The notes below the pieces were generated by a model. It did not search any database, was not told the DNA's origin, and saw nothing but the letters and a program-made list of their open reading frames with translations. Shown piece after piece: positions 23,143 to 42,954 of a stretch of DNA of 64,000 nt (the first letter of the stretch is position 1; each line of letters opens with the position of its first letter). The translations under genes were made by a program, and so were the position numbers. The DNA is from Escherichia phage V18, in the sequence record NC_041937.1; one strand, written 5' to 3'.

Positions 23143-23344
23143 CAGGTATGCTTCTGATTAACTGGGAAGACCTCTATGGGCCTTTATGGGAAAAGAGCAT
23201 GTATTTAAAATGGTGCGTTAATTTAGGGAGGCCTTCCAGTGTTTCAAGCCATGTTTATTGAGATGCTATCTGGGGTATTGTTACTGGTAGCCATCTTAGG
23301 TGGTGCAGTTCTGATGTATAACTATCTTGAAAAAGGAGACAGCA

Positions 23345-23530
23345 ATGGTAAAAAATAAATCTTTAGAGCAGGCTGAAAACCTTCTCCACGAGCTGGTAAA
23401 GGAGTGGAAAGTTGAATACTCAGATTTTAATGCACGAGAGGGTGAAGATTATTGGCCTACGGAGCGCTCAGAGGGCGAATGGTATCAAGATTTTATAGAG
23501 TGGTTATATCAGACGTGCGATGAGGGGTGA
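23345..23530 (+). CDS. hypothetical protein
   Basis: RBS AAAGGAGA before ATG 23345. Confidence 0.35.
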   Translation: MVKNKSLEQAENLLHELVKEWKVEYSDFNAREGEDYWPTERSEGEWYQDFIEWLYQTCDEG

Positions 23531-23991
23531 CGATGTTTGTTAAATATGTAAAAACGTGCCTCAACAGTCTTGGCAGAGAGCATTGGTACACCTTGCTTGA
23601 AAAAGGGGAAATTTTAACAAAATCTGGAAAGATAACTTTTATACATAGTAAAGGTAAAGACCCGTCACGACTTGTTATAGATGATTACGTTACAGGTGTG
23701 ACGTTCGAGGTCTCTGTGGAGAGGTTAATACGCAGAGCTGGCGGCCCTTATGACCGAAGAGAGTATGTTTTCGATTCCGTTACAGAGATGGGGGAGCATC
23801 CGTCTTTAATGTTCAGGATGGTAATCAGAGATATGAGGTCATCTATAGATAGGATTGTAAAGGACATTAAGGAACCTTTTAGAGTAAAAGTTAAGAAGTT
23901 TTTCGATTCTAAGATTAACATACTCGCCGTTGCACTAGGTGTAGTTCAACTTCTGTTAATTTTGCACTATTTTGAACTACTATTTAAGTAG
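23527..23991 (+). CDS. hypothetical protein with C-terminal hydrophobic anchor
   Basis: 154 aa; C-terminal ILAVALGVVQLLLILHYF. Confidence 0.4.
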   Translation: MTMFVKYVKTCLNSLGREHWYTLLEKGEILTKSGKITFIHSKGKDPSRLVIDDYVTGVTFEVSVERLIRRAGGPYDRREYVFDSVTEMGEHPSLMFRMVIRDMRSSIDRIVKDIKEPFRVKVKKFFDSKINILAVALGVVQLLLILHYFELLFK

Positions 23992-24053
23992 TAGTTGAGA
24001 TATGGCACAAAGGATGTGCCATAGTGAAATAAACTAAGAAAGAGGTAGAGAGA

Positions 24054-24401
24054 ATGCCAAAGATTAAAACGTTATTACTGTGGGTAACTGTTTTAGCTTT
24101 TATAGGGTACTGGACTTGGGAAACTGAATTAAAAGATATAGGATATACCAGTCTTGAGAGCAAGGCGTGCATTGGCATAACCGATGCGTTCAGGCAAAAT
24201 GCTATGGATCACGAATGTGTTGATGCAGATATAGATGAGAAACTGTCTAAGGACAAAGATTTTTACCATGGGCATGCTTTACTTGATAGTGGTGACACTG
24301 TAGAGTTCTGGTCGTGGTTTCGTGAAGATGGAACAATAAAAACAGCAGTAAAGATCTCTAACAAAGAGTTAATGCTGTTGCAGCAAAAGGAGGCTCAATG
24401 A
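24054..24401 (+). CDS. hypothetical protein with N-terminal transmembrane segment
   Basis: 115 aa; LLLWVTVLAFIGYW. Confidence 0.4.
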   Translation: MPKIKTLLLWVTVLAFIGYWTWETELKDIGYTSLESKACIGITDAFRQNAMDHECVDADIDEKLSKDKDFYHGHALLDSGDTVEFWSWFREDGTIKTAVKISNKELMLLQQKEAQ

Positions 24402-24685
24402 TCTGGATATCCTATGCTGATGGCACCATGCTGTATACTGCAGGTACCAGATATGAAGTTCAGGAGAACGATAAAAAATTTATCGTAAAAACATTTGACA
24501 AGGACGACAACCTTTTGCTAGAATTGACTTACAAGGTTGGAGAGGTATCCAATATCCAATTGGATTGTGGTCATAAAGATAACCCACTCAAAAAACCTGG
24601 AATAGGCAAGGCTTCAGAAGAACGTTTGTCTCGTATTGCAGAAAGCGTTTCTACACAAAAATCTAAGAAGGGGACTAGAAAATGA
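24398..24685 (+). CDS. hypothetical protein
   Basis: 95 aa, ATGA coupling. Confidence 0.35.
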   Translation: MIWISYADGTMLYTAGTRYEVQENDKKFIVKTFDKDDNLLLELTYKVGEVSNIQLDCGHKDNPLKKPGIGKASEERLSRIAESVSTQKSKKGTRK

Positions 24686-24750
24686 AAAACTTACGTTTTA
24701 ACACTGGCGCAATGGAAGAAGCAATATTCTAAACCAGGCGGGAGGGTTTT

Positions 24751-24936
24751 ATGAAGCACTATTGCCTGTCTGGTAGAATGGGTACAGATTGTGATTGGGT
24801 TTTCTTAAAACTTGTCAGCATTCGAGAGTTCATCCCAGAGGAAGAGCAAGAAAGCGAGCTGATGTCATGGATCAACCATTACGGTAACACTTTTCGGCAT
24901 GTTAAGGTAGAAGAGTTGCCAAGCGAGGCTGATTGA
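24751..24936 (+). CDS. hypothetical protein
   Basis: 61 aa ORF. Confidence 0.3.
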   Translation: MKHYCLSGRMGTDCDWVFLKLVSIREFIPEEEQESELMSWINHYGNTFRHVKVEELPSEAD

Positions 24937-25031
24937 CTATGATTGCATCAATATTAACGTTTATGGGTGGCGTGGCATTCGGATTCATTGTTTGCCTGTT
25001 TATAGTGATTATGTCTATGCGAGGCTGAATT

Positions 25032-25403
25032 ATGAAACTTTTTGAGTGGTTTAAAAAGTTTAAATATAAAGCTGTAGCCATCGTGCCGTGGTCAATTCAG
25101 TGGGTTGATGAAGGTGGTCTACCAATACCTGGTGACAAAGATACTGGGTACTGGATTATGATGGAGAACGGGTTTGGAAAGCGAAAGTATACGTGCACAA
25201 ACTCTACTCGATCTGCCACTAACTGGTCTAAATTCTACTGGGGAGCCAACGAGTGGGGAAGATACGCCACCAAATCAATGGCACTTATTGGTATAGCAGA
25301 GTACATTGCAGCCAGAGATAGGGTTGGAGACACTTATTACTATACTGCGGACGATATTCGTAACAGTGTTTACGTCCCACAACCACCTGATGGAGACCGT
25401 TGA
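25032..25403 (+). CDS. hypothetical protein
   Basis: 123 aa ORF. Confidence 0.4.
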   Translation: MKLFEWFKKFKYKAVAIVPWSIQWVDEGGLPIPGDKDTGYWIMMENGFGKRKYTCTNSTRSATNWSKFYWGANEWGRYATKSMALIGIAEYIAARDRVGDTYYYTADDIRNSVYVPQPPDGDR

Positions 25404-25627
25404 TGAAAGTTAAAGTTTTAGATTCAAGCTTCTATATTGGTCAGGAGCCCTTAGTGGGGAAAGTGTTTACTGCTGTCCCTAACGAAGATTACCCCGACCT
25501 TTTAAAAATAAAAGGGGCAGATCTTATTGCCGCTGGTGCATCTCATGAATGCTTTGACAGTCAGTGGACCTACAACTTTGCCCTAGGTGAGGATGTAGAG
25601 ATAGTGGAGGACGATCATGAAGGTTAA
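25400..25627 (+). CDS. small acidic protein, MK[VI]K...VEE paralog family
   Basis: MMKVKVLDSSFYIGQ...GADLIAAGAS...EIVEDDHEG. Confidence 0.45.
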   Translation: MMKVKVLDSSFYIGQEPLVGKVFTAVPNEDYPDLLKIKGADLIAAGASHECFDSQWTYNFALGEDVEIVEDDHEG

Positions 25628-25871
25628 AATTCTTGATTCTAACGTCTACTTGGGACAATCCTTCCTGAAGGGAAAGGTAGTTCCTGCGGTATACTTTGAA
25701 GGGTTGCCGTGGGATGATCCTGTGCGGCAACATCACAGTTATGTAGGCCACAACGTAGTGTTTATCTTAGGATCAGACCTGATCGCTGCTGGTGCACCGG
25801 AATATTATTTCGGGGAAGAATCCTATTATGCCTTTGGGGCAGGGTCAGATGCAGATATTGTAGAGCTGTGA
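25617..25871 (+). CDS. small acidic protein, MK[VI]K...VEE paralog family
   Basis: MKVKILDSNVYLGQ...GSDLIAAGAP...DIVEL; tandem to previous. Confidence 0.45.
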   Translation: MKVKILDSNVYLGQSFLKGKVVPAVYFEGLPWDDPVRQHHSYVGHNVVFILGSDLIAAGAPEYYFGEESYYAFGAGSDADIVEL

Positions 25872-25883
25872 TGGGTAACCGTT

Positions 25884-26279
25884 GTGAAAAATAAACTGTT
25901 CAAAGTTACAATGAAAATTCGCGGAGCTTGGAGCGTAAAGCAAGGGCGTATCCCAGAATTTGAGAAAGACTTCTACGTAGTCTCCACCTCGGAGGAGGCT
26001 GCATGCTGGCAGGCTGGCTATGCCTATGCAAGAACCTGGTACGAAGGATACCAGACTGGGGGCTATGACGGAGAAATTATCAGCAAGGGTGTGGAAGAAA
26101 TTAATGTGTTGACAAGTAAAAATTTTGTTATAGTGCATCCAGATTCCAGAGTGAAGCATTACTGGAATGCCAGAACAAAAACTTGGACACCGTTTGCAGA
26201 TTCTGCTACACCACTTTTAAACCAAAAAGCTCTTGACTCTGCCCCGAGCTACGGGGTTGTTGAAGAAAAGCTAGACTGA
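25884..26279 (+). CDS. hypothetical protein (paralog of 28089-28484)
   Basis: 131 aa; shared block HP-S-xxYW-xxxx-WTP. Confidence 0.45.
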   Translation: MKNKLFKVTMKIRGAWSVKQGRIPEFEKDFYVVSTSEEAACWQAGYAYARTWYEGYQTGGYDGEIISKGVEEINVLTSKNFVIVHPDSRVKHYWNARTKTWTPFADSATPLLNQKALDSAPSYGVVEEKLD

Positions 26280-26296
26280 AACAGTGAGGTGCCACT

Positions 26297-26587
26297 ATGA
26301 TGGATTTAGTTCTGAATATTGATAACGCAGGGGAGTTTAAAGACGATGGTGTAACAAGCATTGACCAACCATGCTCTGCCAAGATTGACTCAAAATGGGC
26401 CTACAAGTTTGACGGAGAGATCTTCGCAAATGATGAGAAGGTTGTAGATGCTGCAGCCATTTTGAACGCTCTAGGGTACGACCCTGTGAATTCTTTGATC
26501 AAGGATCCTGTTGAGTTTGCAGAGTATGTTCGAAAAATGGCAGATCTTGCTGTAGATATTTTAGATACTATCGATAATAAGCTGTAA
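26297..26587 (+). CDS. hypothetical acidic protein
   Basis: 96 aa ORF. Confidence 0.4.
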   Translation: MMDLVLNIDNAGEFKDDGVTSIDQPCSAKIDSKWAYKFDGEIFANDEKVVDAAAILNALGYDPVNSLIKDPVEFAEYVRKMADLAVDILDTIDNKL

Positions 26588-26593
26588 AAACTG

Positions 26594-26622
26594 TTGACAC
26601 AACGCTTCAGATTTAGTATCAT
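26594..26622 (+). promoter_or_regulatory. sigma70-like promoter (TTGACA-17-TATCAT)
   Basis: -35 at 26594-26599, -10 at 26617-26622, immediately upstream of the HPF-like gene. Confidence 0.6.
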
Positions 26623-26671
26623 TGTTTTCAAAGAGAGATAGTTATTCCCTCTTCCTTAAAAGGAACACGTT

Positions 26672-26992
26672 ATGCAAATTGAAATCACTGGCAACAATGT
26701 AGAAATCACAGAAGGTATGGTATCTTTTATTTCCCGCAAAATGTCCAAGCTGGAGCGTTTACATCCCTCTGTCAACTATGCACGTGTGAGTGTAAAAGTT
26801 GAAAATGATCACCAGGAAGTTATGGCGTTCATTTTTGACAATTCTGGAAAAGAAGTTATTGCCAAAGCTAAAGGCAGTGATGCTTACGAGGCAACTGACC
26901 GTATGGTAGATGTTGCAGCACGTCAGCTGGCTAAATGCGGTGGAAAGAAAGGTAAGGGGAAAGGCAAAGTAAAGATTGACTTTGGAGAATGA
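26672..26992 (+). CDS. hpf: ribosome hibernation promoting factor / RaiA-like protein
   Basis: 106 aa; MQIEITGNNVEITEG...KLERL nearly identical to the bacterial HPF N-terminus MQLNITGNNVEITEA...KLE; similarity continues through VKVEN...ARQLAK. Confidence 0.8.
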   Translation: MQIEITGNNVEITEGMVSFISRKMSKLERLHPSVNYARVSVKVENDHQEVMAFIFDNSGKEVIAKAKGSDAYEATDRMVDVAARQLAKCGGKKGKGKGKVKIDFGE

Positions 26993-27129
26993 GGTGCTAC
27001 AATGGGTGTGATTAAGAAATTAGTCACAAATGTAGAGATTGCATGCTTTGAAATTATGTTTGCAATCGCAGTTGTAGTTAATGTGTTAGGTTACGGCTAT
27101 TAATATCAAATAATTGAGGAGACCTCTAA

Positions 27130-27399
27130 ATGAAAATTAAATTATTCAAAACTGAGCTGGCAGACAAAAACTGTGGACTGGTTGAAGGCATGATTGTTGA
27201 AGCACAACCAGTGGACTATATGAAGGTGGTTCGTGATGCCCTAGGTGAAGGTTTTGATCTGATGGAGCCAGCTCTGCGAGAAGATGTTATCGAGATGGCT
27301 AAAAAGCACACACCTGAAGGTTTGGTGGTGTTTGTTGCACCGGGTAACGGAGAAGAGTTGATTGTAACTCCGGATGTGTATGAGATTGTAGAGGAATAA
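27130..27399 (+). CDS. small acidic protein, MK[VI]K...VEE paralog family
   Basis: MKIKLFKTE start, ends YEIVEE. Confidence 0.45.
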   Translation: MKIKLFKTELADKNCGLVEGMIVEAQPVDYMKVVRDALGEGFDLMEPALREDVIEMAKKHTPEGLVVFVAPGNGEELIVTPDVYEIVEE

Positions 27400-27490
27400 T
27401 CCTGCTTGGATTAGCATACTTCCTCGATAAGGAAGATTTGTAATTATTTGTGGGAAAGGAATCCCAATCTCTTACCAGAGGTGATACTAT

Positions 27491-27670
27491 ATGATTGTTT
27501 ATTTTAAAACTTCAGGTGGATACCCTGATTCTCAAAGCTTGATCGGAAAAACGTGCACAGCATACTCACCTCTTGATGAGGAGGTAAGCGATATTCTACG
27601 AAATATGTATCGGATTGACCCCCAAGAAGCTTTGATCAAAACCTTGTATTTGTCAAGGGCTCAGATATGA
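27491..27670 (+). CDS. hypothetical small protein (59 aa)
   Basis: RBS GAGGTGA before ATG 27491; below the ORF-track size cutoff. Confidence 0.3.
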   Translation: MIVYFKTSGGYPDSQSLIGKTCTAYSPLDEEVSDILRNMYRIDPQEALIKTLYLSRAQI

Positions 27671-27757
27671 AGTCTTTGGGAGCATTCCCTGAAGCAGATG
27701 ATGATGCCGTTTATTCGTTCATGACTCCTTTTGAAGCTATGGTTGTTGGGTGATAAT

Positions 27758-27949
27758 ATGAAAGTACGCTTTATTGGTGAAACAATTCCTGTGCATCTCC
27801 GGTCTCCTGAGGATTCTGCAGATCTTGCATCTCAAAAGGCGAGAGGTTATGATAAGAAAGTAACCTCAACCGATGTAGTGCTTGAGGCTACTAGCTACCT
27901 GACCCTGCTGCATTCTTTAATCATTATGGGTACTATTTCAGCAACCTGA
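27758..27949 (+). CDS. hypothetical protein
   Basis: ATG 27758 (MKVRFIGE) inside the 27731 ORF frame. Confidence 0.3.
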   Translation: MKVRFIGETIPVHLRSPEDSADLASQKARGYDKKVTSTDVVLEATSYLTLLHSLIIMGTISAT

Positions 27950-28088
27950 TGAATATCGGTGAGCTTGTATTTATTAGTGGTGGAGAAATTGTTAGCAAGC
28001 TCGGTGGCGATCCAGATGTCTTTCATGAAACCTGTCCTTTTGCATTTGTGGTAGGTTCAGATGTGGAAGTTATTGAGGAGGTGCGGTA

Positions 28089-28484
28089 ATGGTAAGCCTA
28101 TACCGTGTCGAGTATAGCTCGGATACTGTATACAACGTAAGAAGCAAAGATCGCAGCGACAGAGTGCAAGAAATGTATGTTCTTGCCGACAGTCCGTTAT
28201 CTGCAGCGTTCAAGGCAGGGGCTCTTGCATCTCGTTGGAAATTTGAAGGTGGATCTTTCTATGAAGAAACCCTTGAAGATTCTGTTGTTATTTCTTCTGT
28301 AGAGGTTTCAGATGACTACGAAGGGAAAAAGTTCGTAATGCGGCACCCACACAGCAATATTGCGTACTACTGGGACGTTCTGAACAACGAGTGGACCCCA
28401 GATCTTCAGAAGGCTACTGTGCTAACACCGTTTTTGGCAGATAAGTTCCCACCAGAAGGTAATTTATCTGCACTGTTTCAGTAA
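28089..28484 (+). CDS. hypothetical protein (paralog of 25884-26279)
   Basis: 131 aa; FVMRHPHSNIAYYWDVLNNEWTP versus FVIVHPDSRVKHYWNARTKTWTP. Confidence 0.45.
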   Translation: MVSLYRVEYSSDTVYNVRSKDRSDRVQEMYVLADSPLSAAFKAGALASRWKFEGGSFYEETLEDSVVISSVEVSDDYEGKKFVMRHPHSNIAYYWDVLNNEWTPDLQKATVLTPFLADKFPPEGNLSALFQ

Positions 28485-28502
28485 TTTTCTTGCACACAGG
28501 TG

Positions 28503-28531
28503 TTGACAACGCCAACCCTGTGTGAAATAAT
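28503..28531 (+). promoter_or_regulatory. sigma70-like promoter (TTGACA-17-AATAAT)
   Basis: -35 at 28503-28508. Confidence 0.55.
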
Positions 28532-28563
28532 ACCTTCATCTTAACAAGACAGGAGACCGATTG

Positions 28564-28821
28564 ATGAAGATTAAATTGAAAAACCTTGAAACGGCAGAGA
28601 TTCAGGACGGTGTTGATTTCCGTTCTAAAGATGGTGACATCTTAGAGGTAAATATTCCAACCTACGATCTGATCAAAGGTTTTGGCAACGTCCCCGAGGA
28701 AGGTATCGCAGACGTTCTTCTAATGTTAATCGTTAGTGGGACAGTGTTCTTGGGTGAAGGTGAGAACGCTATTGCAATCCCAAGCCATTTTTATGAAGTA
28801 GTTGACGAAGAGGTGCTGTAA
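28564..28821 (+). CDS. small acidic protein, MK[VI]K...VEE paralog family
   Basis: MKIKLKNLE start, ends YEVVDEEVL. Confidence 0.45.
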   Translation: MKIKLKNLETAEIQDGVDFRSKDGDILEVNIPTYDLIKGFGNVPEEGIADVLLMLIVSGTVFLGEGENAIAIPSHFYEVVDEEVL

Positions 28822-29172
28822 ATGAAAGTAGAAATTACTGGTTTTGATGTGAATGCGGTTCCGGAAGATATTTTAGCTAAACTTCCGGAAGGTTTTGGTA
28901 ACGGTGTTGTGGTGGATGCTGTTCCTCCTACCAAAGACATTCTGCTGCAGTATGGTGTAGCAGAGGAAGATGTCGATAAAGTTCTTACAATGATGGCAAT
29001 CGATCGTGTTGTCGTTGTTAAAGGTCTCGATAATTTTGAGAGTGATCCCCTGATTATTCGTGGAGATGACTACAAAATCATCGATAATGAAGGCCAAGAG
29101 TTCTATGAACCTTGTGCAGAAGATATTCTTAACTTATTACTGGAAGCAGGCACCGAAGAGGAGGACGAATAA
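28822..29172 (+). CDS. hypothetical acidic protein
   Basis: 116 aa; MKVEITGFD start, very acidic C-terminus. Confidence 0.45.
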   Translation: MKVEITGFDVNAVPEDILAKLPEGFGNGVVVDAVPPTKDILLQYGVAEEDVDKVLTMMAIDRVVVVKGLDNFESDPLIIRGDDYKIIDNEGQEFYEPCAEDILNLLLEAGTEEEDE

Positions 29173-29788: not shown

Positions 29789-29877
29789 TAAATCTTGCCA
29801 AGGTTGCAATGGTCCTGCTAATTATTTGCTGGTCAGTAACCTTAACACTGTGTCTTGTATTTCAGTAAGGTGCTTAT

Positions 29878-30075: not shown

Positions 30076-30295
30076 ACTATCTAAGAACGGGGGATATCCC
30101 TGAAAGATTTAAAAAAGTTCTTGACGGCAAGGATAAATGATAGTATAGTGACTAACAAGAGGTGAGGAATGACTGATTTTACTGAAGCTTTGATGATGGC
30201 CTTGTCTGTTTTAGCGCTATCGGTATGTTTTGGGGCGTTATTCACATCTCTGGTTAAAGTTTTACATACAGTATTATTACCCAAGGAGCGCAGTA

Positions 30296-30547
30296 ATGAC
30301 GAAGATTGACTTGAATGCTGGCGACCATGTTGTTGTCAAATGCATCGGAGATTATCTTGGATTCACAATCGGCAATACTTACGAGGCGGTAGTGTCGAAG
30401 GTTTATCATGATAAAGTCCTCAGTCTTGTATTTGACTGCGATGATGATGGGGATGACCGATACGTCTGTGAGGTGCTGGCACGAGACGATAGTGAAGACC
30501 AGAAATTCCTGGTTATTGAACTGAACGGTATTTTTGTAGAACGTTAA
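30296..30547 (+). CDS. hypothetical protein
   Basis: RBS AAGGAG before ATG 30296. Confidence 0.4.
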   Translation: MTKIDLNAGDHVVVKCIGDYLGFTIGNTYEAVVSKVYHDKVLSLVFDCDDDGDDRYVCEVLARDDSEDQKFLVIELNGIFVER

Positions 30548-31655: not shown

Positions 31656-31928
31656 TCCCGTTACAGAGCGTTTAAGAGCTTCCTACAAACAAATCTCTCT
31701 TTCGAGCGTAGCGAGAACGCACGTCCGTTTTGACCCAAATCACCATACGCTCGGATTTTAACCAAACCCTCGCGGCGTTTCTGTTGACACATTACCGCTA
31801 CCGTGATAGTATCCACACAGTTTGGAGAATATGGAATACACAATGAGAACATTGTCTGAAGTTTTAGTGGTGATCCTGATGATCATTACGTCTATAGCGG
31901 CTGTTGCCGGAATACTCACGGGTGGAAC

Positions 31929-32129
31929 ATGATCAACACACATGCATCTGAAGGAGTGACGACATGTAGCCTGGATGAGCCAGTTAAAGAGGAAAACTTA
32001 GATTCTGATGACTCTTCATCTTCGTCCCAGACAGATCCTGAGGCTGATGACCTAACGTGGGAAGACATCGTAGACATCTGGTTCTCTATTATGCCTGAGC
32101 ACGAAGAGTTCAGAGGTGGTAGACTATGA
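31929..32129 (+). CDS. hypothetical acidic serine-rich protein
   Basis: 66 aa ORF. Confidence 0.3.
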   Translation: MINTHASEGVTTCSLDEPVKEENLDSDDSSSSSQTDPEADDLTWEDIVDIWFSIMPEHEEFRGGRL

Positions 32130-32466: not shown

Positions 32467-32593
32467 CGCACAATTAGCTGCCCGGCTAAAGTGCTGGAAG
32501 CACCTATAACACATCTTTCAACTAAATTTCCTACCACCACAATCACTTACCTCCCGCACATGACTGTTTGCTTGTTTAGTGAGCAGTCATGCC

Positions 32594-32621
32594 TTGACAT
32601 TCTTGCCTATCCTGATAAAAT
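32594..32621 (+). promoter_or_regulatory. sigma70-like promoter (TTGACA-16-TAAAAT) firing into ORF-free DNA
   Basis: -35 at 32594-32599, -10 at 32616-32621; no credible ORF downstream. Confidence 0.5.
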
Positions 32622-33160
32622 TAAGTTCTTCTCTTTTCTTTTACCGAGTAATTCGGGTTTTCTGTTCTCTTCGGTTTGAAGGGGTATGGAGATACACCTG
32701 AGTGAACAGGGTGAACAACCGAACCATTAGCTATGGCATTAGCATGGCGAAGCGGACGGGTGACGAAAGAGGGGCCGGAGGACACCAGTCACTGCCATAT
32801 GATATATGGGTGATAACCTGAAGAGTCTGAATAAGTGTTTAAGTACCAGTCAGAGGAAAAGGTGAATGGTAGCCGAAGGGGGGAGGGGGGTTTCTTGTAT
32901 CTTTAATTTGTATATTATGTATACACTTGTAAACCAATCTAATCTGAATCTGTTTACCACACAAAGCGGATAGAGACAAATATTGCCTATTAAACTTGAA
33001 TTATTTATAGAAAATACCACAACACCCCTTAAGTCTTTGATTTACACACAAATCCTACAGATATTCAACCTCCATATTTAACATACTTGTAACATATTCC
33101 ATACTCTACCTGTCTGATCAATTTCCCAACTACATTCTCATATTTTCCCTGTCTGTACTA

Positions 33161-33356
33161 CCCCTGCCCCGCCGGGAGTCCCGTCATATCTGGCTTTCCA
33201 GCAAATATCACACCCACAAATATCATTGCCTGAAGAGGGTTTCATCCCATAATACCTGCCTTACCTGAAGAGCGCTTCATACACCACGTAAATTTTTTAA
33301 TTGACCTCCCCCTGCCCCTCCGGAGAGGTTGGCTTTTCCCACACAGACCTGAAGAG
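33161..33356. repeat. cluster of short direct repeats
   Basis: cccctgcccc-g/t-ccgg-g-ag at 33161 and 33308; cctgaagag at 33229, 33264, 33348. Confidence 0.5.
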
Positions 33357-33976
33357 TCAGCCAGAAATATCTGAATAGGCCCGATCTGCCCAGTCAGGAG
33401 CCAGTAGCGACTGGAGTGCTGCCAGGCGGACGGAATGGGAATACTTCTCATTCTTATAACAATTCTCAAATATCGAGGCAGTGAGAGAAATTAATAGGCC
33501 AGGCCGTTCACACAGTGGCACAACATTTGCAACCTATCCTGTGGGGATGAATGAGAATACCTATCATTGTGAGAACTATTATCATTACGGGCAATTTAAC
33601 ATAATACCCATTATGCGCACCACTGGCGATACATACAGGGATTGATACCATGAGTTACAGTTTACACACATAACAATTATATTTCTTACTATTTGTGTGG
33701 GATATAGTTAGCAGCCAATAGATTAGATATTGACCTGTAGACTTCCAACCGTCTGGACGTCTAAACGCCCACACACCAAGGGTTATACATACATCGCTGA
33801 ATGTAAACAGGGCCGCAAAAATGCTACCATACCAGTTTGTAAATTTTTCATGCAGCACTTGACAAAGAGGAGAAAAACTTGTCTGACACAATGTCACACA
33901 ATATGACACTTTACACTGGACACACTAGGCACAAAAAAAAAAAACTGCAGTGACTAGGTCACCCCTTCAGGTGTTT

Positions 33977-34171
33977 CTATGACATAATATAAAAGCAGGG
34001 CAACTATTACAAATCTAAAGTTGCCTTGCTTGTTATGTCATGATTAACTAAATACAAGGCAACTATGATCTGATTAATAGTTTGCAGACAAACTATCACG
34101 GGGGTGATGGTTACTGCTTTTATATTATGTCGCGACTCCGTCGCGCCATGCCATTCGTTTGCATAGTTGCC
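33977..34171. repeat. palindrome-flanked iteron cluster
   Basis: 19-bp inverted arms at 33980-33998 and 34114-34132; GGCAACTAT copies at 33999, 34048, 34087 (variant) and inverted at 34017, 34163. Confidence 0.55.
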
Positions 34172-34824
34172 TTATTGTTACAGATAAAATAATTGTATTG
34201 TTAATTATTTCTTATCTTTCTATTAGTCATCTAATGATTCCAGTTAGTATAGTAACGTATAGTAAACATTAGACGACTAAATATTTCTCTGTTTATGATA
34301 ACTCACCGTAATAATTTCGGACTGTTTACGAAAAATGTTGACACCCTGGCTGATTTATGTTATGCAATTTAAACGAATAATTATTTTATGCAGGTATTGA
34401 CTATTCCGTTATTCTATGGTTGGAATAAATACTTAGCAGGCTATAGAATGGTGAGCGTACGTAAATTCTGAGATCTGTCGGCTATAGTTATACCCGATTT
34501 TTCACGTAGAACACGCTTTCGATGCTGTGTAAGTGTATGACTTATAAAGATTTTTAGTTGTTGACAAGATATTGGAGATGTGCATCAGGTTAAAATTTGT
34601 GCAATAGCGGCATTACGTGCACTTTTGGGAGAGAAAACGGGTAAAAATGGACTTGCTACCACACAATGAAAAATTATGCAATAGCTATTTTACATGTATG
34701 TTTGTACAGTGCGGGCAATTGATGGCTCGTCAATTATTCCACTTGCCAGGTAGGGCCGTTTATGGTAGGGGGAAGAGCAGACAAAAAGAAAGGGGCCTAA
34801 GCCCTTGATAATTCAGTTAAAAAA

Positions 34825-35652: not shown

Positions 35653-35744
35653 GATGTTTACCTCTTTATGAGGTTCTGGTTTGGTGTGGGCCTTTTGGCC
35701 CGTGTCATTATCTTATTACTTACGGCGGCAAAATTCAAGTGTTT

Positions 35745-36197: not shown

Positions 36198-36389
36198 TTA
36201 TATTTTTTCGCCTATGTAGTCCGGCCTATTCTTTTCGGTCATACGCTTAAGCATTTTTTGCAAAGAGTTAATATATAACACCAGATCGCTGACTACCAGG
36301 ACAACATTAATCAGCACATACCTAACCATAAAGGGAAAGATCGCCAACATTGCCGCCACGATCCCCATGGTAATAATTACCTTTCTCAT
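36198..36389 (-). CDS. small membrane protein
   Basis: 63 aa, two hydrophobic segments. Confidence 0.35.
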   Translation of the reverse strand: MRKVIITMGIVAAMLAIFPFMVRYVLINVVLVVSDLVLYINSLQKMLKRMTEKNRPDYIGEKI

Positions 36390-36399
36390 GGTTAGCGGT

Positions 36400-36675: not shown

Positions 36676-36766
36676 TGTATCTATCCTCTTTCTGCTACGT
36701 TTAAGGCGGCGGCAACCGCCTGTTTATGCTTTGTTGGTTAATTTTCGGGTATCGGTATAAATTAAA

Positions 36767-36982
36767 CTATGCTGTACGCTCAACTATAACAACGGCTTGA
36801 GGGATCTCACCTTCCACCACTATCAAGGCTTTTTTCTGCGTAATGGATATCTTTACCCGCTTCAGCGTGGCGGTAAAGTCTTTCATTTCGTCACGTGGTG
36901 TTTTAGTGCAATACCAGATCTCAGGCTTGCCGATCTGTAAGTTGCGTAAAAATTCCGTTTTGCCTGTTTTGTTAGTGATCAT
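36767..36982 (-). CDS. hypothetical protein
   Basis: 71 aa ORF. Confidence 0.35.
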   Translation of the reverse strand: MITNKTGKTEFLRNLQIGKPEIWYCTKTPRDEMKDFTATLKRVKISITQKKALIVVEGEIPQAVVIVERTA

Positions 36983-36991
36983 TTGCCAACC

Positions 36992-37096
36992 TCACCCGAT
37001 ACCGTTGGAAGACAAGATCACATTAGCCATGGTTGCAATCAGGCCAATACCCAGGGCAATAACCAGGATCACCGCATCAATTAATTTCTGTTTCAT
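36992..37096 (-). CDS. small hydrophobic peptide (34 aa)
   Basis: RBS AGGAAGAGGATAAA; MKQKLIDAVILVIALGIGLIATMANVILSSNGIG. Confidence 0.3.
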   Translation of the reverse strand: MKQKLIDAVILVIALGIGLIATMANVILSSNGIG

Positions 37097-37240
37097 GGTG
37101 TTTATCCTCTTCCTGTTGCGTTTAATGGGGCGCTTGTCTCCCCTACTTATTATGTTTTAATCTTCTTGTTCCAGGTGGCGGACCATTCCACCGCCTTATG
37201 TATTATGCTTTGTAAGATGGTTGTTTGTTTTCAAACTATT

Positions 37241-37420
37241 TTAACGATAATCATCGTACGCTTTATTAACCTGGCGAATATAACATTCAAAAGCCAGATC
37301 AATAGATTTATATTCACGGATATACTCACCATAGGAAACCACATACATTTCTATAGCTTCCTCATATGCGAGGAGAGTAGAATCCAAGCCTACGATCTCA
37401 GTCTTTGCAATAATAGCCAT
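37241..37420 (-). CDS. hypothetical small protein (59 aa)
   Basis: RBS AAAGAGGA before ATG; below ORF-track cutoff. Confidence 0.35.
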   Translation of the reverse strand: MAIIAKTEIVGLDSTLLAYEEAIEMYVVSYGEYIREYKSIDLAFECYIRQVNKAYDDYR

Positions 37421-37490
37421 GATTTTTATCCTCTTTGTGGTTGGTGGGCTTGCCCCTTTGATTTATATACTACAGTCTTATATGGTCATG

Positions 37491-37724
37491 TCAACTATTT
37501 TCAAAAAATTTTTCTGCCGTGATATTCTTCCCGGTGGGGTTCGCCACCTTCAAAATTTTATCATGCACTGGACGCCCAAAAGAATAAGCGCCGTACGCAG
37601 TAAGCCAATAATCCCCGTCAGGCTGTACTATTACCGCCGCATATGGTACGCCTTTTTCGTTTTTGCTGACAAAATAGATCACATTGCCATTAATAGCCTC
37701 AGCGCGTTTAATTTGTTCCATCAT
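37491..37724 (-). CDS. hypothetical protein
   Basis: 77 aa ORF. Confidence 0.4.
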   Translation of the reverse strand: MMEQIKRAEAINGNVIYFVSKNEKGVPYAAVIVQPDGDYWLTAYGAYSFGRPVHDKILKVANPTGKNITAEKFFENS

Positions 37725-37780
37725 GATGATTCACCTATCTTTATTTTTAATAGTTTCAGGCCTTTTTGGCCCCGCCAGGT

Positions 37781-38065
37781 TTATTTATTGATAGCGTGCA
37801 ACGGGAAAGGTACGCCAGGTTGATAGATAACTTTTACAACCTCATCGGGGCAAAAGAAATTACAAAATTCACCCCGATAAGCTTCATCTTCTTTTAATTC
37901 TTCATCAACATACTCAAAAAAGTAGTCGATGCTTGGATAATCCTGACCGGGATTATAGTCAACCATTGTCAGGACTAGTTCAAGATCGTTGCGTAGGATA
38001 TGCATACCTGCTTTTAAGTATTTTGCTTCCATTTCTACTACATCGCCAACGGTAACAATAGCCAT
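37781..38065 (-). CDS. hypothetical protein
   Basis: 94 aa; RBS TAGGAGTTAAAA; leader contains the G17 tract. Confidence 0.4.
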   Translation of the reverse strand: MAIVTVGDVVEMEAKYLKAGMHILRNDLELVLTMVDYNPGQDYPSIDYFFEYVDEELKEDEAYRGEFCNFFCPDEVVKVIYQPGVPFPLHAINK

Positions 38066-38101
38066 GATTTTAACTCCTATCTATCCGGTTAATGATTGGA
38101 G

Positions 38102-38118
38102 CCCCCCCCCCCCCCCCC
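38102..38118. repeat. homopolymeric C17 tract (G17 on the coding strand)
   Basis: 17 consecutive C residues counted in the sequence, 37-53 nt upstream of the 38065 start. Confidence 0.9.
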
Positions 38119-38298
38119 GACACCCTTTATTATCCATATTGTAGGGCTTGATGCAAGTACTTCTTTAAAAATTTTTTAAGCGCCTTGGGGGCCGCTGTAG
38201 CGCTAAAATAATAAAGGCCATGCAACCGCATAGCTTTATGTGATTATATCGCTGCAGGCCCTACCATGGGCCTTATTTTGCATCATTTGCTGGAATTA

Positions 38299-38616
38299 TT
38301 AAGAGAAAACATCGTTCACAATAGCGATCACAATGCCGCCCACCTTGTCACGGTCAACAATGCACAAATCACCATAGATCATGTGGTAGTCTGGATGATC
38401 TTTCACGGAATAGTCAATGAGTGTCTTCTTATCGTCCAGCTTACTAACTTCCATTCTCATAAAGATATGAGAATCATCAAAGGCATTATTCCGAAAAGTC
38501 ATAACCTGACCGCCAGGGCACCCGGTGATTTCCACCTCCACGCCGTCTACGATCTGACCATCAAAGAAATAAAGATTATTAGCGGGTATAAACATGATCA
38601 TTGCTCCTTTTTGCAC
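38299..38616 (-). CDS. hypothetical protein
   Basis: 105 aa; RBS AAAAGGAG. Confidence 0.4.
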   Translation of the reverse strand: MQKGAMIMFIPANNLYFFDGQIVDGVEVEITGCPGGQVMTFRNNAFDDSHIFMRMEVSKLDDKKTLIDYSVKDHPDYHMIYGDLCIVDRDKVGGIVIAIVNDVFS

Positions 38617-38640
38617 TGATTATTTTAACAGGGTTTAAAT

Positions 38641-38689
38641 TTACTTTATTGATGGCCCTGGAGTCAAGGCCATCTAAAAATAAATTTTA
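38641..38689. repeat. copy 1 of a conserved ~50-bp intergenic element
   Basis: ttactttattgatggccctggagtcaaggccatctaaaaataa; near-identical to copies at 42367 and 42987. Confidence 0.7.
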
Positions 38690-38694
38690 CAGGC

Positions 38695-38886
38695 CTACAA
38701 TCTCTTTATTCGTTTTACTGCTGCCTCAGCGCCTTGAGGGTAAAAATTATGGTAACCAATCACGCGGGTAATACTGATCGCCGCCTGATGATCTTCATAA
38801 TACCCCTTGAATATTTCTTGACCATCAACCAGCACAGCAATTTTTTCTTCTTTTTTGAAGTTAATAACGCGGATATTGTTGCTCAT
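38695..38886 (-). CDS. hypothetical protein
   Basis: 63 aa ORF. Confidence 0.35.
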   Translation of the reverse strand: MSNNIRVINFKKEEKIAVLVDGQEIFKGYYEDHQAAISITRVIGYHNFYPQGAEAAVKRIKRL

Positions 38887-39364
38887 TTTGTTTCTCCTTT
38901 TGGAACTTTGTCTGTGTGGTGGGGAGTGTCTCCCCGTTGATTGTTATTATCCATATTCAGGACCGGATTGCAACACCCAGGGAGAAAAAATTTGAAAAGT
39001 TAGGCCCCAGGGATCGGGGCCGTTATCAGGCACGTACAGCGATAAAATACATCCCTACGCCTAACAATATTTCAAGGGCGATGATCTCCAGCCATACCAT
39101 AACACGGCGCGCCTTATCGGTGCTGGGCTTATCCTTGGGTGTCATCGTCTCCCCCTTTCCTCCTGTTAGTAGTGACGTGGTTTGTAATGGTCCCCAGGAG
39201 TATTATCACCACGCACATTACAAGAAAAATTATCTCTGTCGTTGTTCGATCCATTGTTATAAAACTCCTTAAGATCAGGCCTGAAAATAAAGCTTTCGTT
39301 ATTGAATCCATCCCGCCAGGCGGCTGGCTTCAAATCTTCACTAAATGGATTAATTAACGTGGTA

Positions 39365-39736
39365 TTATTTAAACGGCTGGCCCACATATTTTCTATTCCT
39401 CTCAAATAAGCGATCCGCCTCAGTTAAACAAATCTCATGGGCGTGATCTCTGGTTTTAGCTTCATCGAAAACCTGTTGTGCAAGGCTGCAACGTAGGGAG
39501 ACTGGAAGATCACTATAATAGGCGTTGACAAACGTTTGAGCGTCGTACAGGTCTGAAAATACTTTACCCTTTCTATTATTCCCCTTGTCAACAATTGCAA
39601 GGATAACCAATACAATAGTTGCAACCACCCCCAGGAAAATAGATATAATAAACCATAAAAAGGCGGATCTTCCCATCTTGCCAGCGATCCAGGCGTTAAA
39701 CAAGGCAACCAATACAGCCAAAATAATAAATTCCAT
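39365..39736 (-). CDS. membrane protein
   Basis: RBS AAGAGG before ATG 39736 (MEFIILAVLV); two transmembrane segments. Confidence 0.4.
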   Translation of the reverse strand: MEFIILAVLVALFNAWIAGKMGRSAFLWFIISIFLGVVATIVLVILAIVDKGNNRKGKVFSDLYDAQTFVNAYYSDLPVSLRCSLAQQVFDEAKTRDHAHEICLTEADRLFERNRKYVGQPFK

Positions 39737-39877
39737 TCTATGTACCTCTTTTACAGTTCTGATTAACAATAAGGCGGCAAATATGCCGCCTGTTACCTGA
39801 TTAAAAATTATCGCCGTAAAGCTTTCCGCTTTCTGCCCATACCACCACGCGAGGCATACTATCCCACACGTCTTGTT

Positions 39878-40180
39878 TTAGATTAACGCGTGCAATTCTT
39901 CGGTGGTGCTCATACCGGGCACGGGCTGATTGTATACTGCAAAACGACCGCCTGCATAATCATAGGCCAGGGTTAAATCACACTGGATCATCTTTTTGAT
40001 CATGGCATTAAGCATGGCGTTAGCCGCATATTGATCACGTTTTAAAGGCAACTCTTTGATTAGTTTGCGATAGTTTTCGATATGGTCGCACACTGTTTCA
40101 CGAGGAAGATCTTTCATATCCTCGCGAAAGGTAACCAGGTTAAACATAACGGTGTCAATAGCTTTGGTAGTGTTTTTCAT
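39878..40180 (-). CDS. hypothetical protein
   Basis: RBS AAAGAGGA before ATG 40180. Confidence 0.4.
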   Translation of the reverse strand: MKNTTKAIDTVMFNLVTFREDMKDLPRETVCDHIENYRKLIKELPLKRDQYAANAMLNAMIKKMIQCDLTLAYDYAGGRFAVYNQPVPGMSTTEELHALI

Positions 40181-40268
40181 GATGTTATCCTCTTTGTTTT
40201 GTGTGGGGCAAATCATCGCCCCCTTGAGTTTTAATATAGCAGGTTTTTAGGTTATTGCAACACTTTAT

Positions 40269-40478
40269 TTATGAAAAAGTCATCTCACCATATTCATCGA
40301 CATCAAACCGCCAATCATTGGCCTCGATAAGGCCGATCAGGTTTTCTGCGGTGAACTGTTCTAGATAGGCCTCCTCCAGGTCTACGTAAACCTTGCGGGA
40401 TAGCTCCCGTACCGTCTCGGTGATCAGTTCTTCCAGTCTTCCACTTTGTTTTCTTGTTTGGCGGTCAGATCTAGCCAA
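40269..40478 (-). CDS. hypothetical acidic protein
   Basis: 69 aa ORF. Confidence 0.35.
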   Translation of the reverse strand: MARSDRQTRKQSGRLEELITETVRELSRKVYVDLEEAYLEQFTAENLIGLIEANDWRFDVDEYGEMTFS

Positions 40479-40497
40479 GTGGTATCAATGTACCCGC

Positions 40498-40890
40498 TTA
40501 CAGTGTTTTCATGGCTGTAATGGCTGTACTTGTCGCGTTCAACACTGGCTGATAACTCGCATCGTGCATTGTGCCGAACAAGTGACGAATTGATCGGAAC
40601 TTGGTCAGGGCCCTTACTTTACGCAAAAATTTTTCTAAATCCACGTTTTCAGCACTGATTGAAGCGCCGTCACCCTGGCACCAAAAGCCGGACCAATGTA
40701 CTTCGGTATCTTCAAGGCCGTACTCTGGAAAGATATATTCTTTGTAGTGTTCAATTACACTTTCTGCAAAAAAGTCATCCCCGCTGCGTTCTTCTCTTTC
40801 GCGGACCATTTCAATGGCTTTTTCTTTTTGTTCGTCGGTCAGCACGTCGAAAGATAAATTGCAACCTGTAGTAATGTTAACGGTAGTCAT
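40498..40890 (-). CDS. hypothetical protein
   Basis: 130 aa; RBS ATAGGAGAAAA; promoter and leader hairpin upstream. Confidence 0.4.
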   Translation of the reverse strand: MTTVNITTGCNLSFDVLTDEQKEKAIEMVREREERSGDDFFAESVIEHYKEYIFPEYGLEDTEVHWSGFWCQGDGASISAENVDLEKFLRKVRALTKFRSIRHLFGTMHDASYQPVLNATSTAITAMKTL

Positions 40891-40946
40891 GATGTTTTCT
40901 CCTATTTTCTTTGTTAGTGGCGGGAAGTTTTCCCGTTTACGTGTTT

Positions 40947-40975
40947 AAGTATACTTATCAAGATTTACTTGTCAA
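40947..40975 (-). promoter_or_regulatory. sigma70-like promoter (TTGACA-17-ATACTT)
   Basis: plus-strand tgtcaa at 40970-40975 and aagtat at 40947-40952. Confidence 0.5.
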
Positions 40976-41225
40976 CACTATTTTTTAAATTATTGTGGCG
41001 CAAAATGTTTAAAATCTCCTCAACGTCATCAACACGGCGGCAATTTTTAAACGCTACCAATTGCCCCATGATTTTAATCACTGGGCGGCCTTGCCAGTGC
41101 CCCTGGAGAAAGCGCGCCTTGACTTTATCGGTGGAACTATCACGCCACCAAATAGCCTTGTTGTTGCAGTAGTAAAAATTATTCAGGACAACATCAACTT
41201 TATCAAAATTTTTTAATTTACGCAT
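40965..41225 (-). CDS. hypothetical protein
   Basis: 86 aa ORF. Confidence 0.35.
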   Translation of the reverse strand: MRKLKNFDKVDVVLNNFYYCNNKAIWWRDSSTDKVKARFLQGHWQGRPVIKIMGQLVAFKNCRRVDDVEEILNILRHNNLKNSVDK

Positions 41226-41430
41226 GGCGTTTACTCCTTTCTCTCTTTGATGTGGTTAGTATAGCTAACCTGTTGACGATGTCAAGGTTAAATAAAAAAC
41301 TGTCAATGATATTTTTAACGCCATAAAACGGCCCTAAGCGATGTTTTCAGGTTAAAGGGGGGGCGATTGCATAGGTGGGGCCTTTTTGGCGCTTACAGGG
41401 CCAACCAGGGGCGCTATTCGTAGGATAGAA

Positions 41431-41457
41431 ATAAAAAGCCCCGCACAATGGCGGGGC
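41431..41457 (-). terminator. intrinsic terminator
   Basis: gccccgc-6 nt loop-gcggggc then U5 on the minus-strand transcript, just after the 41466 stop. Confidence 0.6.
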
Positions 41458-41465
41458 GTTGGTTG

Positions 41466-41687
41466 TTATTTGTCTTTATGGCGGTATCGTTCTGCCTGTC
41501 GTTCACGTTCCAAAAGTAGGCCGGGCAATTTACGATCATAATGATTGCGCCAGATCTTCCCAAACCTTTTTGGCTTATTCAGTTTATTGTTACGCTGGCG
41601 GCGTTCTGGCAGCTCTTCGGAATCATGAGGGCGCTTTACAATTTTCTCGAAATTAATTTTCATATATTCCCCCCTTGCTAACTTCAA
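41466..41687 (-). CDS. hypothetical basic protein
   Basis: 73 aa, Arg/Lys-rich. Confidence 0.4.
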   Translation of the reverse strand: MKLARGEYMKINFEKIVKRPHDSEELPERRQRNNKLNKPKRFGKIWRNHYDRKLPGLLLERERQAERYRHKDK

Positions 41688-42004
41688 TATTGGCCTGAAT
41701 AGCCGATACGGCGCTTTATAACTTCCTGATCTGTGTGGTCATATCCCCAAAAGTCTACGATTTTTGCGCCTCCAGCCTTTAGGCGGTATAGTGTTTCTTG
41801 CATCTTGTAAGCTGGGATCGGTCGCGGTGTTACCTGGTCGCCTCTCTCATCCTTGTACTTGATAATGTAGTCTTCGTTGTCGTTGAATGCCCAAAATGGG
41901 TATTCTGTGAGCGCGTTGCTATCTTTTTCGTTTTTAGATTGGATCTTGTTTACAATTAAAGCCGTAGCAATAGCGCCAATGATAAAACTAGCCCCGCTAA
42001 TCAT
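41684..42004 (-). CDS. membrane protein
   Basis: 106 aa; N-terminal SFIIGAIATALIV. Confidence 0.4.
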   Translation of the reverse strand: MISGASFIIGAIATALIVNKIQSKNEKDSNALTEYPFWAFNDNEDYIIKYKDERGDQVTPRPIPAYKMQETLYRLKAGGAKIVDFWGYDHTDQEVIKRRIGYSGQY

Positions 42005-42079
42005 GTACTTTCTCCTTTCATGGTGTTAATAAATTATCTTTATAGATGGCCCTGCAACCAGGACCACCGAAAAAACAGC

Positions 42080-42325
42080 TTATTTGACGATACCGACAAA
42101 ACAGATCCCGCCTTCCCCTATATAGGCAATATCGGTAATTTTATAATTTGTCAAGATCTGCTTATTTAGTTCATTAATAAAATCGGTCATTGCGTTGGTG
42201 TAGTTGTCTTCCGTGTCTAAGGCATAATCCCAGGTGTACACCTTTTTACGTCCGAAGCCTTTTACCATGATACGGGCGCTTTTGGTGTTGGTAGGGGCAT
42301 AATATTTGGTGATTAGTGCTGCCAT
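42080..42325 (-). CDS. hypothetical protein
   Basis: 81 aa ORF. Confidence 0.4.
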   Translation of the reverse strand: MAALITKYYAPTNTKSARIMVKGFGRKKVYTWDYALDTEDNYTNAMTDFINELNKQILTNYKITDIAYIGEGGICFVGIVK

Positions 42326-42366
42326 GGTTTTAACTCCTATGCATTAGTTCAGTGTTAACAGTATAA

Positions 42367-42417
42367 AGTTTACTTTATTGATGGCCCTGGTGTCAAGGCC
42401 ATCTAAAAATAAGCTTA
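42367..42417. repeat. copy 2 of the conserved ~50-bp intergenic element
   Basis: 51 nt identical to 42987-43037. Confidence 0.8.
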
Positions 42418-42755
42418 CTCGTTTTCTTCCAGCTCCGCAAGCTCTTCTTTTGCTTCTTCCAACCCTGTCTGTAATTCCTGGTATTCTTCATCGTCCTCAA
42501 TATCCAGCTGTCGATGTAGTCGCTAAATCCGCAGCGGTAAGCGATAGGATCTAGCTCCTTGAGGATACGCGACGGAAGAAAAGAAATGTTTCCGATCATA
42601 ATTTCGCCGTAGATCTCGTCTAACCATTCATCATAGTTTTCGTCGTACTTGTCCTCGTCGATTTCAAAGTTATCGATCTTATTCTCAAGGTCTGCGATCT
42701 GTTTTTTCAGCGCGGCGATCTGCATGGCTTTTTCTGCGGCGGTCATAGTAGTCAT
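42393..42755 (-). CDS. hypothetical coiled-coil acidic protein (3' end probably frameshifted)
   Basis: tracked frame ends in a K/R-rich tail; an alternative frame gives an acidic end LDIEDDEEYQELQTGLEEAKEELAELEENE with stop at 42416. Confidence 0.4.
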   Translation of the reverse strand: MTTMTAAEKAMQIAALKKQIADLENKIDNFEIDEDKYDENYDEWLDEIYGEIMIGNISFLPSRILKELDPIAYRCGFSDYIDSWILRTMKNTRNYRQGWKKQKKSLRSWKKTSKLIFRWP

Positions 42756-42806
42756 GGTGTTTTTCTCCTTTTGTGTGTTCTGGGAAGTTTTCCCGTTTAT
42801 GTGCTT

Positions 42807-42834
42807 ATTATAGCGATTTAAGTTAGCTTGTCAA
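42807..42834 (-). promoter_or_regulatory. sigma70-like promoter (TTGACA-16-TATAAT)
   Basis: plus-strand tgtcaa at 42829-42834 and attata at 42807-42812. Confidence 0.5.
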
Positions 42835-42954
42835 TTAAAAGTTTAAGAAAAATTTTGCGACACCGTTGGCGCTACCCATCAACATTTGCGCCAGGATGTA
42901 CCCAATGATGCAAACGATGATGGTTACCTTTGTGTGCTGGCGTGTAGTGCTCAT
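42835..42954 (-). CDS. small hydrophobic peptide (39 aa)
   Basis: MSTTRQHTKVTIIVCIIGYILAQMLMGSANGVAKFFLNF. Confidence 0.3.
   Translation of the reverse strand: MSTTRQHTKVTIIVCIIGYILAQMLMGSANGVAKFFLNF

Follow-up and report, generated by a model that had tools for sequence, protein, structure and literature searches.

The closest described relatives of the genes considered here are small membrane proteins of phage rV5. The genes are seven short open reading frames (ORFs) between positions 23,143 and 42,954 of a 64,000-nucleotide (nt) stretch of Escherichia phage V18 (NC_041937.1), the whole of which is called the window below. They are genuine conserved protein-coding genes for tiny single-helix membrane proteins. 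The rV5 proteins gp131, gp145, gp156, gp173, gp193, gp170 and gp181 are each listed as 'membrane protein, 1 TMD', that is, with one transmembrane domain, on the basis of TMHMM/Phobius (Kropinski et al. 2013, Virol J 10:76, Table S3). Five of these are direct orthologs of the genes in the window and two more are orthologs of their siblings described below, with equal length, the same synteny and 82-100% amino acid (aa) identity. There is no substantive difference from rV5, except that two of the seven genes were not called there but are called in the BASEL phages and other records.

Functional parallels come from more distant systems. The bacterial protein MgrB (47 aa) binds the sensor kinase PhoQ (2025 review). 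It is similar to the peptides of the window in size class, in having a single transmembrane (TM) helix, and in its proposed TM/periplasmic contacts with a bigger membrane protein. However, there is no sequence similarity, and the peptides considered here are phage-encoded and genus-restricted. In S. aureus, the small membrane protein Gp11 of phage PhiNM1 is made early and binds MurG and DivIC. Like the peptides, it is encoded in the early region of a phage, but the host and the phage are unrelated and there is no homology; Gp11 is experimentally supported, whereas the peptides are predicted from sequence. Imm of T4, which binds the incoming tape-measure protein, is an early inner-membrane protein encoded by a virulent E. 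coli myovirus. It has 83 aa and a multi-helix core and shows no homology to the peptides, which have 29-46 aa and one helix.

The seven genes are called c1 to c7 below. PHROG matches are given with their E-values.

c1, 23239..23358, plus strand: ortholog of rV5 gp131; 39 aa from GTG 23239; full-length match to phrog_15251 (E 1.5e-26).
c2, 24939..25028, plus strand: 29 aa, almost entirely hydrophobic, with a GVAFG (GxxxG) motif; no dedicated PHROG.
c3, 27002..27103, plus strand: ortholog of rV5 gp145; 33 aa; phrog_15151 (E 1.6e-25); conserved GAGGTG Shine-Dalgarno (SD) box.
c4, 30169..30309, plus strand: ortholog of rV5 gp156; 46 aa; phrog_16755 (E 3.6e-36); overlaps the next gene by 14 nt.
c5, 31831..31932, plus strand: 33 aa (from ATG 31831) or 29 aa (from ATG 31843); phrog_34195 (E 2.8e-21).
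c6, 36992..37096, minus strand: ortholog of rV5 gp173; 34 aa; phrog_14631 (E 1.8e-22); C-terminal motif ATM(A/S)NxILSSxGIG.
c7, 42835..42954, minus strand: ortholog of rV5 gp193; 39 aa; phrog_16391 (E 1.8e-31); AGGAGG SD box 7 nt upstream.

All seven ORFs of the initial annotation were found exactly at its coordinates, which start at ATG 23251 for c1 and at ATG 31843 for c5; each has an ATG start, an in-frame stop and 29-46 aa. Each contains one stretch of TM grade, 17-19 residues long with a mean Kyte-Doolittle hydrophobicity of 2.1-2.9, in agreement with the single domain published for the rV5 orthologs. The segment is long enough to span the bilayer and its hydrophobicity is kept by selection, as seen from the depletion of variable second codon positions and from conservative substitutions (see below), which fits the single-pass (bitopic) class. 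The claim of ATGA coupling holds in part. A true overlap of stop and start codons was found only at the end of c5 (31929-31932), whereas the other ORFs have gaps of 2-26 nt or overlaps of 11-14 nt.

The description of the ORFs as unannotated did not stand. The genes are already known, having been catalogued in 2006-2013. In the annotation of rV5 (DQ832317), c1 is ORF131, c3 is ORF145, c4 is ORF156, c6 is ORF173 and c7 is ORF193. The BASEL phages carry annotations for all seven, and by synteny and length the ORFs correspond one-to-one to annotated coding sequences of EmilHeitz, RudolfGeigy, rV5, JES2013 and Murica. Six of the genes, c1 and c3-c7, match PHROG families of their own, all of unknown function, and these matches extend over the full length of both peptide and profile (E 1e-21 to 1e-36). 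For c2 the PHROG scan yielded no family, only a weak match to phrog_6302 (E 3.8e-3). Thus c2 and c5 are the genes left unannotated in rV5. Since c5 is annotated in JES2013, Murica and the BASEL phages, only c2, which has no feature in most records, is truly under-annotated overall. One likely reason is its size, as 90 nt is the minimum length of common gene callers.

The hydrophobic ORFs are more numerous than expected by chance. As the background, we considered all ATG-initiated ORFs of 25-50 aa in the six frames of the window (n=225), and an ORF was called hydrophobic if the mean Kyte-Doolittle value over 17 residues was at least 2.0. Sixteen background ORFs (7%) were hydrophobic. Among coding-strand ORFs of the same length that occupy gaps between larger genes and have an SD-like motif, the fraction was 7/11, or 6/10 once an out-of-frame overlap was removed. 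The latter value corresponds to an approximately 8-fold enrichment (binomial P ~2e-5), which argues that the ORFs are beyond chance. The gap filter skipped c1 and c4, solely because spurious TTG-extended ORFs overlap both. Two other candidates were rejected: the hydrophobic ORF at 37231-37344 (minus strand) is an out-of-frame overlap of a real gene, 37241-37420 (phrog_9374), and the ORF at 33508-33651 (minus strand) has no ribosome-binding site (RBS) and lies inside an ORF-free zone.

Orthologous segments were collected from 5-13 related loci per ORF. They include one IMG/VR genome that is only 73-85% identical to the window at the DNA level (the diverged genome below); it was one of only four loci obtained when IMG/VR was scanned with two neighbouring genes as anchors. 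The reading frames are intact at nearly all orthologous loci. The pooled variable sites at the first, second and third codon positions are distributed as 48:18:83, with depletion of the second position (p = 2e-9) and excess of the third (p = 2e-8). The pooled ratio of nonsynonymous to synonymous changes (pN/pS) is 0.16 in the proposed frames, while reading the same DNA in the two wrong frames gives 1.09 and 1.28. In comparison with the diverged genome, the peptides retain 70-97% aa identity, the median for 54 accepted neighbouring genes being 90%. Judging from these comparisons, selection keeps the reading frame, the length, the start codon, the SD box and the hydrophobic character.

Single genes show the same tendency in different ways. 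The c1 peptide of the diverged genome is 97% identical (one change per 35 aa) at a DNA identity of only about 85%, and the variable sites of c1 are distributed as 2:1:17. The corresponding ratios are 0:2:9 for c5 and 7:1:13 for c7. In c7 the diverged genome has a 3-nt in-frame deletion, and aa identity across 111 records is 82-100%. In c3 the segment VEIACFEIMFAIAVVVNVLGYGY is unchanged even in the diverged genome, and substitutions are limited to the N-terminus.

The initial annotation made its proposal depend on conservation in related genomes. Each ORF is intact in about 70-116 GenBank records of Vequintavirus. In a census by tblastn against all GenBank phages (E <= 10), c1, c3 and c4 were found in 116 records each, c5 in 112, c7 in 111, c2 in about 89 and c6 in at least 70; the last count is a lower bound, because masking of low-complexity regions lowers the scores and a second allele of c6 exists. 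In this census each peptide is confined to Vequintavirus, save for four chance-level matches of c2 with less than 60% identity (the two listed have E 5 and 8). A comparison of c4 with 5.8 billion proteins yielded 11 clusters; all come from rV5-like contigs, have 46 aa and show at least 78% identity.

Two starts are likely to be upstream of those proposed initially. For c1 the true start is probably GTG 23239, 12 nt upstream of ATG 23251 (39 versus 35 aa), because the codon at this position toggles between GTG and ATG among relatives (it is ATG in JES2013) and GGGAG(G/A) is conserved 7 nt upstream. The single TM helix of c1 is followed by the charged tail EKGDSNGKK. There are two in-frame ATG codons in c5, between which annotators are divided; the gene may start at 31831, 12 nt upstream of 31843, and its stop codon overlaps the start of the next gene (ATGA). 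A toggle between ATG and GTG at the same position is also seen in c4, which encodes an acidic N-terminus, one TM helix and a charged C-terminal tail.

The c2 gene occupies 90 of the 95 nt of a gap, which leaves 2 nt to the upstream stop codon and 3 nt to the next start. The 10-nt direct repeat GCGAGGCTGA bounds a 96-nt segment to which the gene belongs. The gene is cleanly missing from Murica, A112b, A135 and the diverged genome, and genomes without c2 have exactly one copy of GCGAGGCTGA; thus the downstream gene retains the same RBS with or without c2. Seven alleles of c2 contain 12 variable sites distributed as 5:0:7 by codon position, and all replacements are hydrophobic swaps (I/V, V/M, F/V, V/L/I, S/A). 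Hence c2 is a constrained but dispensable mini-gene.

The c6 gene forms a two-gene module with the downstream homolog of rV5 gp172 (71 aa; 36767-36982, minus strand; phrog_5988). The diverged genome lacks the two genes together; phAPEC8, a phage of a different subfamily, and the Serratia Justusliebigvirus carry them in the same order. A second allele of c6, of exactly 34 codons, occurs in phAPEC8 and in one IMG/VR contig (pS 0.68 versus pN 0.29). The phAPEC8 homolog, MLEKIFTVAVVGLALSVGVVATMANMILSSHGIG, is an unannotated gene of 34 aa at 2447-2551 (plus strand) of NC_020079.1, between gp254 and gp253. The copy in Serratia phage KKP_3264 has a frameshift within a homopolymer run. The c7 gene is a stand-alone ORF encoding a basic N-terminus, one TM helix and the C-terminal AKFFLNF.

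The c3 gene starts 9 nt after the stop codon of a gene for an HPF/S30AE-like ribosome hibernation factor (26672-26992, plus strand), and the pairing is present in every relative examined, including the diverged genome. By tblastn against GenBank phages there is no homolog of c3 outside the genus by which a wider link between HPF and the peptide might be traced.

Two siblings were overlooked in the initial annotation; the first of them was found by a scan of gaps.

gp181 ortholog, 39026..39145, minus strand: 39 aa; phrog_13629 (E 1.5e-30).
Homolog of rV5 gp170 and phAPEC8 gp248, 36198..36389, minus strand: phrog_16005 (E 5.4e-25, residues 1-43).

The gp181 ortholog has a basic N-terminal tail, a C-terminal TM helix, 82% identity in the diverged genome, a strong SD box and a terminator-like hairpin downstream. 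In the gp170 homolog, a deletion has created a novel 20-aa tail, QKMLKRMTEKNRPDYIGEKI, behind the hydrophobic residues 1-43. With these two, the single-TM small genes total nine among approximately 65 genes of the region.

The window is from a Vequintavirus, that is, an rV5-like E. coli myovirus. Megablast against 50,697 GenBank phage records yielded more than 100 Escherichia Vequintavirus phages matching the region at 90-97% identity over nearly the entire 22-kb span. In annotated relatives, small genes are on the plus strand up to about 32.5 kb and on the minus strand from about 34.8 kb, with an ORF-free zone between, and the GC skew changes sign at about 32 kb. About 65 small genes and many sigma-70-type promoters are found in the two arrays together, away from the late structural genes. 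In rV5 these genes are in transcription units apart from the late structural genes (27-66), and 33 sigma-70-type promoters have been described (Kropinski et al. 2013).

Promoter-like sigma-70 sites occur just upstream of c4 (30121-30149), c5 (31784-31812) and c7 (43016-42987). The c5 site contains TGaTAGTAT, an extended -10 box that is conserved even in the diverged genome, where the flanking DNA is only 73% identical. The c5 gene appears to be the first one downstream of this promoter-like site. The c7 gene is bracketed by two sites of sigma-70 type, one matching 10/12 positions upstream and the other a perfect 12/12 consensus at 42834-42807, 1 nt after the stop codon, which corresponds to P192 of rV5; the bracketing is conserved in all relatives. 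Since the arrays are rich in sigma-70-type promoters and lie apart from the late structural genes, the peptides are probably expressed early by the host RNA polymerase, which is a reasonable conclusion from promoter-like motifs.

What could such peptides do? We lean towards the view that these are real genes for single-pass inner-membrane microproteins that act via helix contacts with a larger membrane protein. The peptides would be made early by the host RNA polymerase and would then insert into the inner membrane. Each would contact a larger inner-membrane protein or complex helix-to-helix, tuning or blocking it. Candidate targets are host transporters, enzymes of division or of the envelope, effectors of defence and, in superinfection, the machinery by which the second phage enters. 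Partner binding is the most likely mechanism by analogy with the systems above, although our confidence in it is modest. By the positive-inside rule, the distribution of charges suggests that the N-terminus is inside in c3, c5, c6 and c7 and the C-terminus is inside in c1, c2 and c4. Each family keeps its own conserved polar motifs, such as GYGY, ILSSxGIG and AKFFLNF, which favours specific contacts over generic membrane damage. As not all relatives carry c2 and c6, the peptides seem to be accessory rather than essential.

The initial annotation had also proposed superinfection exclusion and inhibition of membrane defence proteins. Both are plausible as sub-cases of membrane-protein binding, and the sequence data favour neither specifically. 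No homologs of known superinfection-exclusion proteins of the T4 Imm/Sp or P22 SieA type were found in the Pfam, PHROG and NCBIfam scans. A bolder possibility, which we regard as speculative, is that the genus has its own toolkit of 'decoy helices', in which each of the nine or more peptides is tuned to a different inner-membrane machine of the host, perhaps including membrane-embedded defence effectors, and that c2 is a very young mini-gene moved or lost as the 96-nt cassette between the 10-nt repeats.

Several observations weigh against action through a membrane partner, or leave it less secure. The Pfam, NCBIfam and PHROG scans gave no named function and no characterised homolog for the peptides; weak Pfam matches to MP_p6, YqzM and FAM176 were rejected, as they are below the cut-offs and reflect hydrophobic composition. 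None of the ten immediate neighbours has a known function from which one could argue by association. The early timing relies on promoter-like motifs, which are only modestly enriched (60 found versus 46 ± 6 in shuffled sequences). In the literature, we found no Vequintavirus transcriptome, Ribo-seq, infected-cell proteome, fractionation or gene-function screen covering these genes, and in the mass spectrometry of rV5 the 'MS evidence' flags are on structural proteins (Kropinski et al. 2013, Table S3). For c3 and c4 taken alone the enrichment of third positions is not significant (p = 0.37 and 0.15); the changes in these two genes cluster at the termini and the helix core is invariant. Finally, partner binding and autonomous membrane damage are inseparable at the sequence level.

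The latter alternative is that the peptides act like the type I toxins TisB, HokB, DinQ and IbsC, which would mean that they oligomerise, dissipate the proton-motive force and aid host shut-off. The size of 29-46 aa, the single TM helix and the very short polar ends fit the description of such toxins (less than 60 aa; 2025 review), and small-xxx-small or GxxxG motifs in several peptides, such as GVAFG in c2, could support self-association. However, most of the peptides are not amphipathic or cationic in the way that pore formers typically are, nine different depolarisers per genome would be redundant, and the family-specific polar motifs point to specific contacts. Moreover, unlike the genes of type I toxins (TisB, HokB, DinQ, IbsC, ShoB), the genes considered here are in operon-like arrays with ordinary SD-driven translation. 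In NCBIfam there was no match at E <= 5 for the seven candidates and the gp181 homolog; models for small membrane proteins and for toxin families (Hok, Ldr, TisB, Ibs, ShoB, DinQ, ZorO and others) are expected in this curated collection of bacterial and archaeal families, although the presence of each toxin family was not checked. The gp170 homolog had only weak, unrelated NCBIfam matches (E 0.024 and 1). No Rfam match was found in 22000-44000, and no search aimed at an antisense-RNA antitoxin was made. Taken together, this makes autonomous action unlikely.

Still less probable is a role of some peptides in lysis timing as a holin, pinholin, antiholin or spanin-like helper. Of the functional options in the initial annotation, holin or antiholin is the least likely. 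In favour of such a role, c1 is two genes downstream of the position of rV5 gp129, a protein with two TM domains that was proposed as the holin in 2013, and the holin of the genus is not established, since the BASEL annotations pick the gp183 homolog instead. However, the endolysin gene (1595-2074; phrog_90, E 1.3e-40) is 21 kb from c1 and 35-41 kb from c6 and c7. There is no match to PHROG families of the lysis category or to Pfam holins, and no lysis annotation on the immediate neighbours. The peptides are scattered in small-gene arrays with sigma-70 promoters, apart from the region corresponding to the late genes of rV5. Phages of the T4 type scatter their lysis genes, so the distance from the endolysin lowers the probability of a lysis role without excluding it. 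Moreover, gp129 is deleted in this phage yet c1 is intact, so c1 is not tied to gp129; if the phage is viable, gp129 is not an essential holin.

That the peptides have no function at all, the ORFs being chance frames, translational-coupling spacers or carriers of promoters and RBSs for their neighbours, is the most improbable reading, as the RBS of the downstream gene within the last codons of the cleanly losable c2, the consensus promoter abutting c7 and the lack of a significant third-position excess in c3 and c4 are set against selection data that appear largely to refute it (pooled pN/pS 0.16 versus about 1.2 in the wrong frames, depleted second positions, conservative replacements, the exact length of c6 across two phage subfamilies and the in-frame indel of c7) and against the approximately 8-fold excess of hydrophobic ORFs over the six-frame background.

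The region contains several deletions relative to its relatives. The ORF at 23148-23261 (plus strand) is an in-frame fusion of the N-terminus of rV5 gp128 (MLLINWEDLYG) with the C-terminus of gp130. Approximately 815 nt are missing here in comparison with 6/6 relatives, comprising most of gp128 ('putative glycosidase' in the BASEL annotations) and all of gp129. Directly downstream of c2, the ORF at 25032-25403 (plus strand) joins in frame the N-terminal part of the gp138 homolog (phrog_8932) and the C-terminal part of the gp139 homolog (phrog_12340), with about 209 nt missing relative to EmilHeitz, rV5 and Murica. At 36198-36389 (minus strand), the new tail of the gp170 homolog goes back to the loss of about 140 nt relative to RudolfGeigy. 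Three deletions within 14 kb, each leaving an open fused frame, are unusual.

The ORF-free zone at the convergence of the two arrays covers about 2.4 kb (32467-34824) and is the counterpart of the 'non-coding' region 104013-106618 of rV5. The GC content of the zone is 0.40. Identity to the diverged genome is 84-90%, so that its conservation is at least that of the flanking coding DNA. Convincing ORFs, tRNA, Rfam families and tandem repeats were looked for in this zone and none were found. The zone might serve in replication or regulation, or might encode a long non-coding RNA.

About 20 records titled 'UNVERIFIED: Campylobacter phage ...' (e.g. MG065646, MG065682), which are classed under Vequintavirus, match the region at 94-96%. 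The Campylobacter host label of these records looks doubtful.

Small membrane proteins make up a large and mostly uncharacterised share of the 'dark matter' among phage early genes. Across the 22-kb accessory region of this phage, about one gene in seven encodes a single-helix peptide. What is added here is firmer evidence for c2 and c5 as genes, corrected starts, two extra members and the unannotated homolog in phAPEC8, and no functional assignment is made. Almost every member of a genus that serves in phage therapy and biocontrol carries these peptides, and purifying selection acts on them, which makes them reasonable candidates for functional study. If c2 is indeed a young mini-gene, it would offer a tractable example of how a virulent phage gains and loses a functional microprotein.

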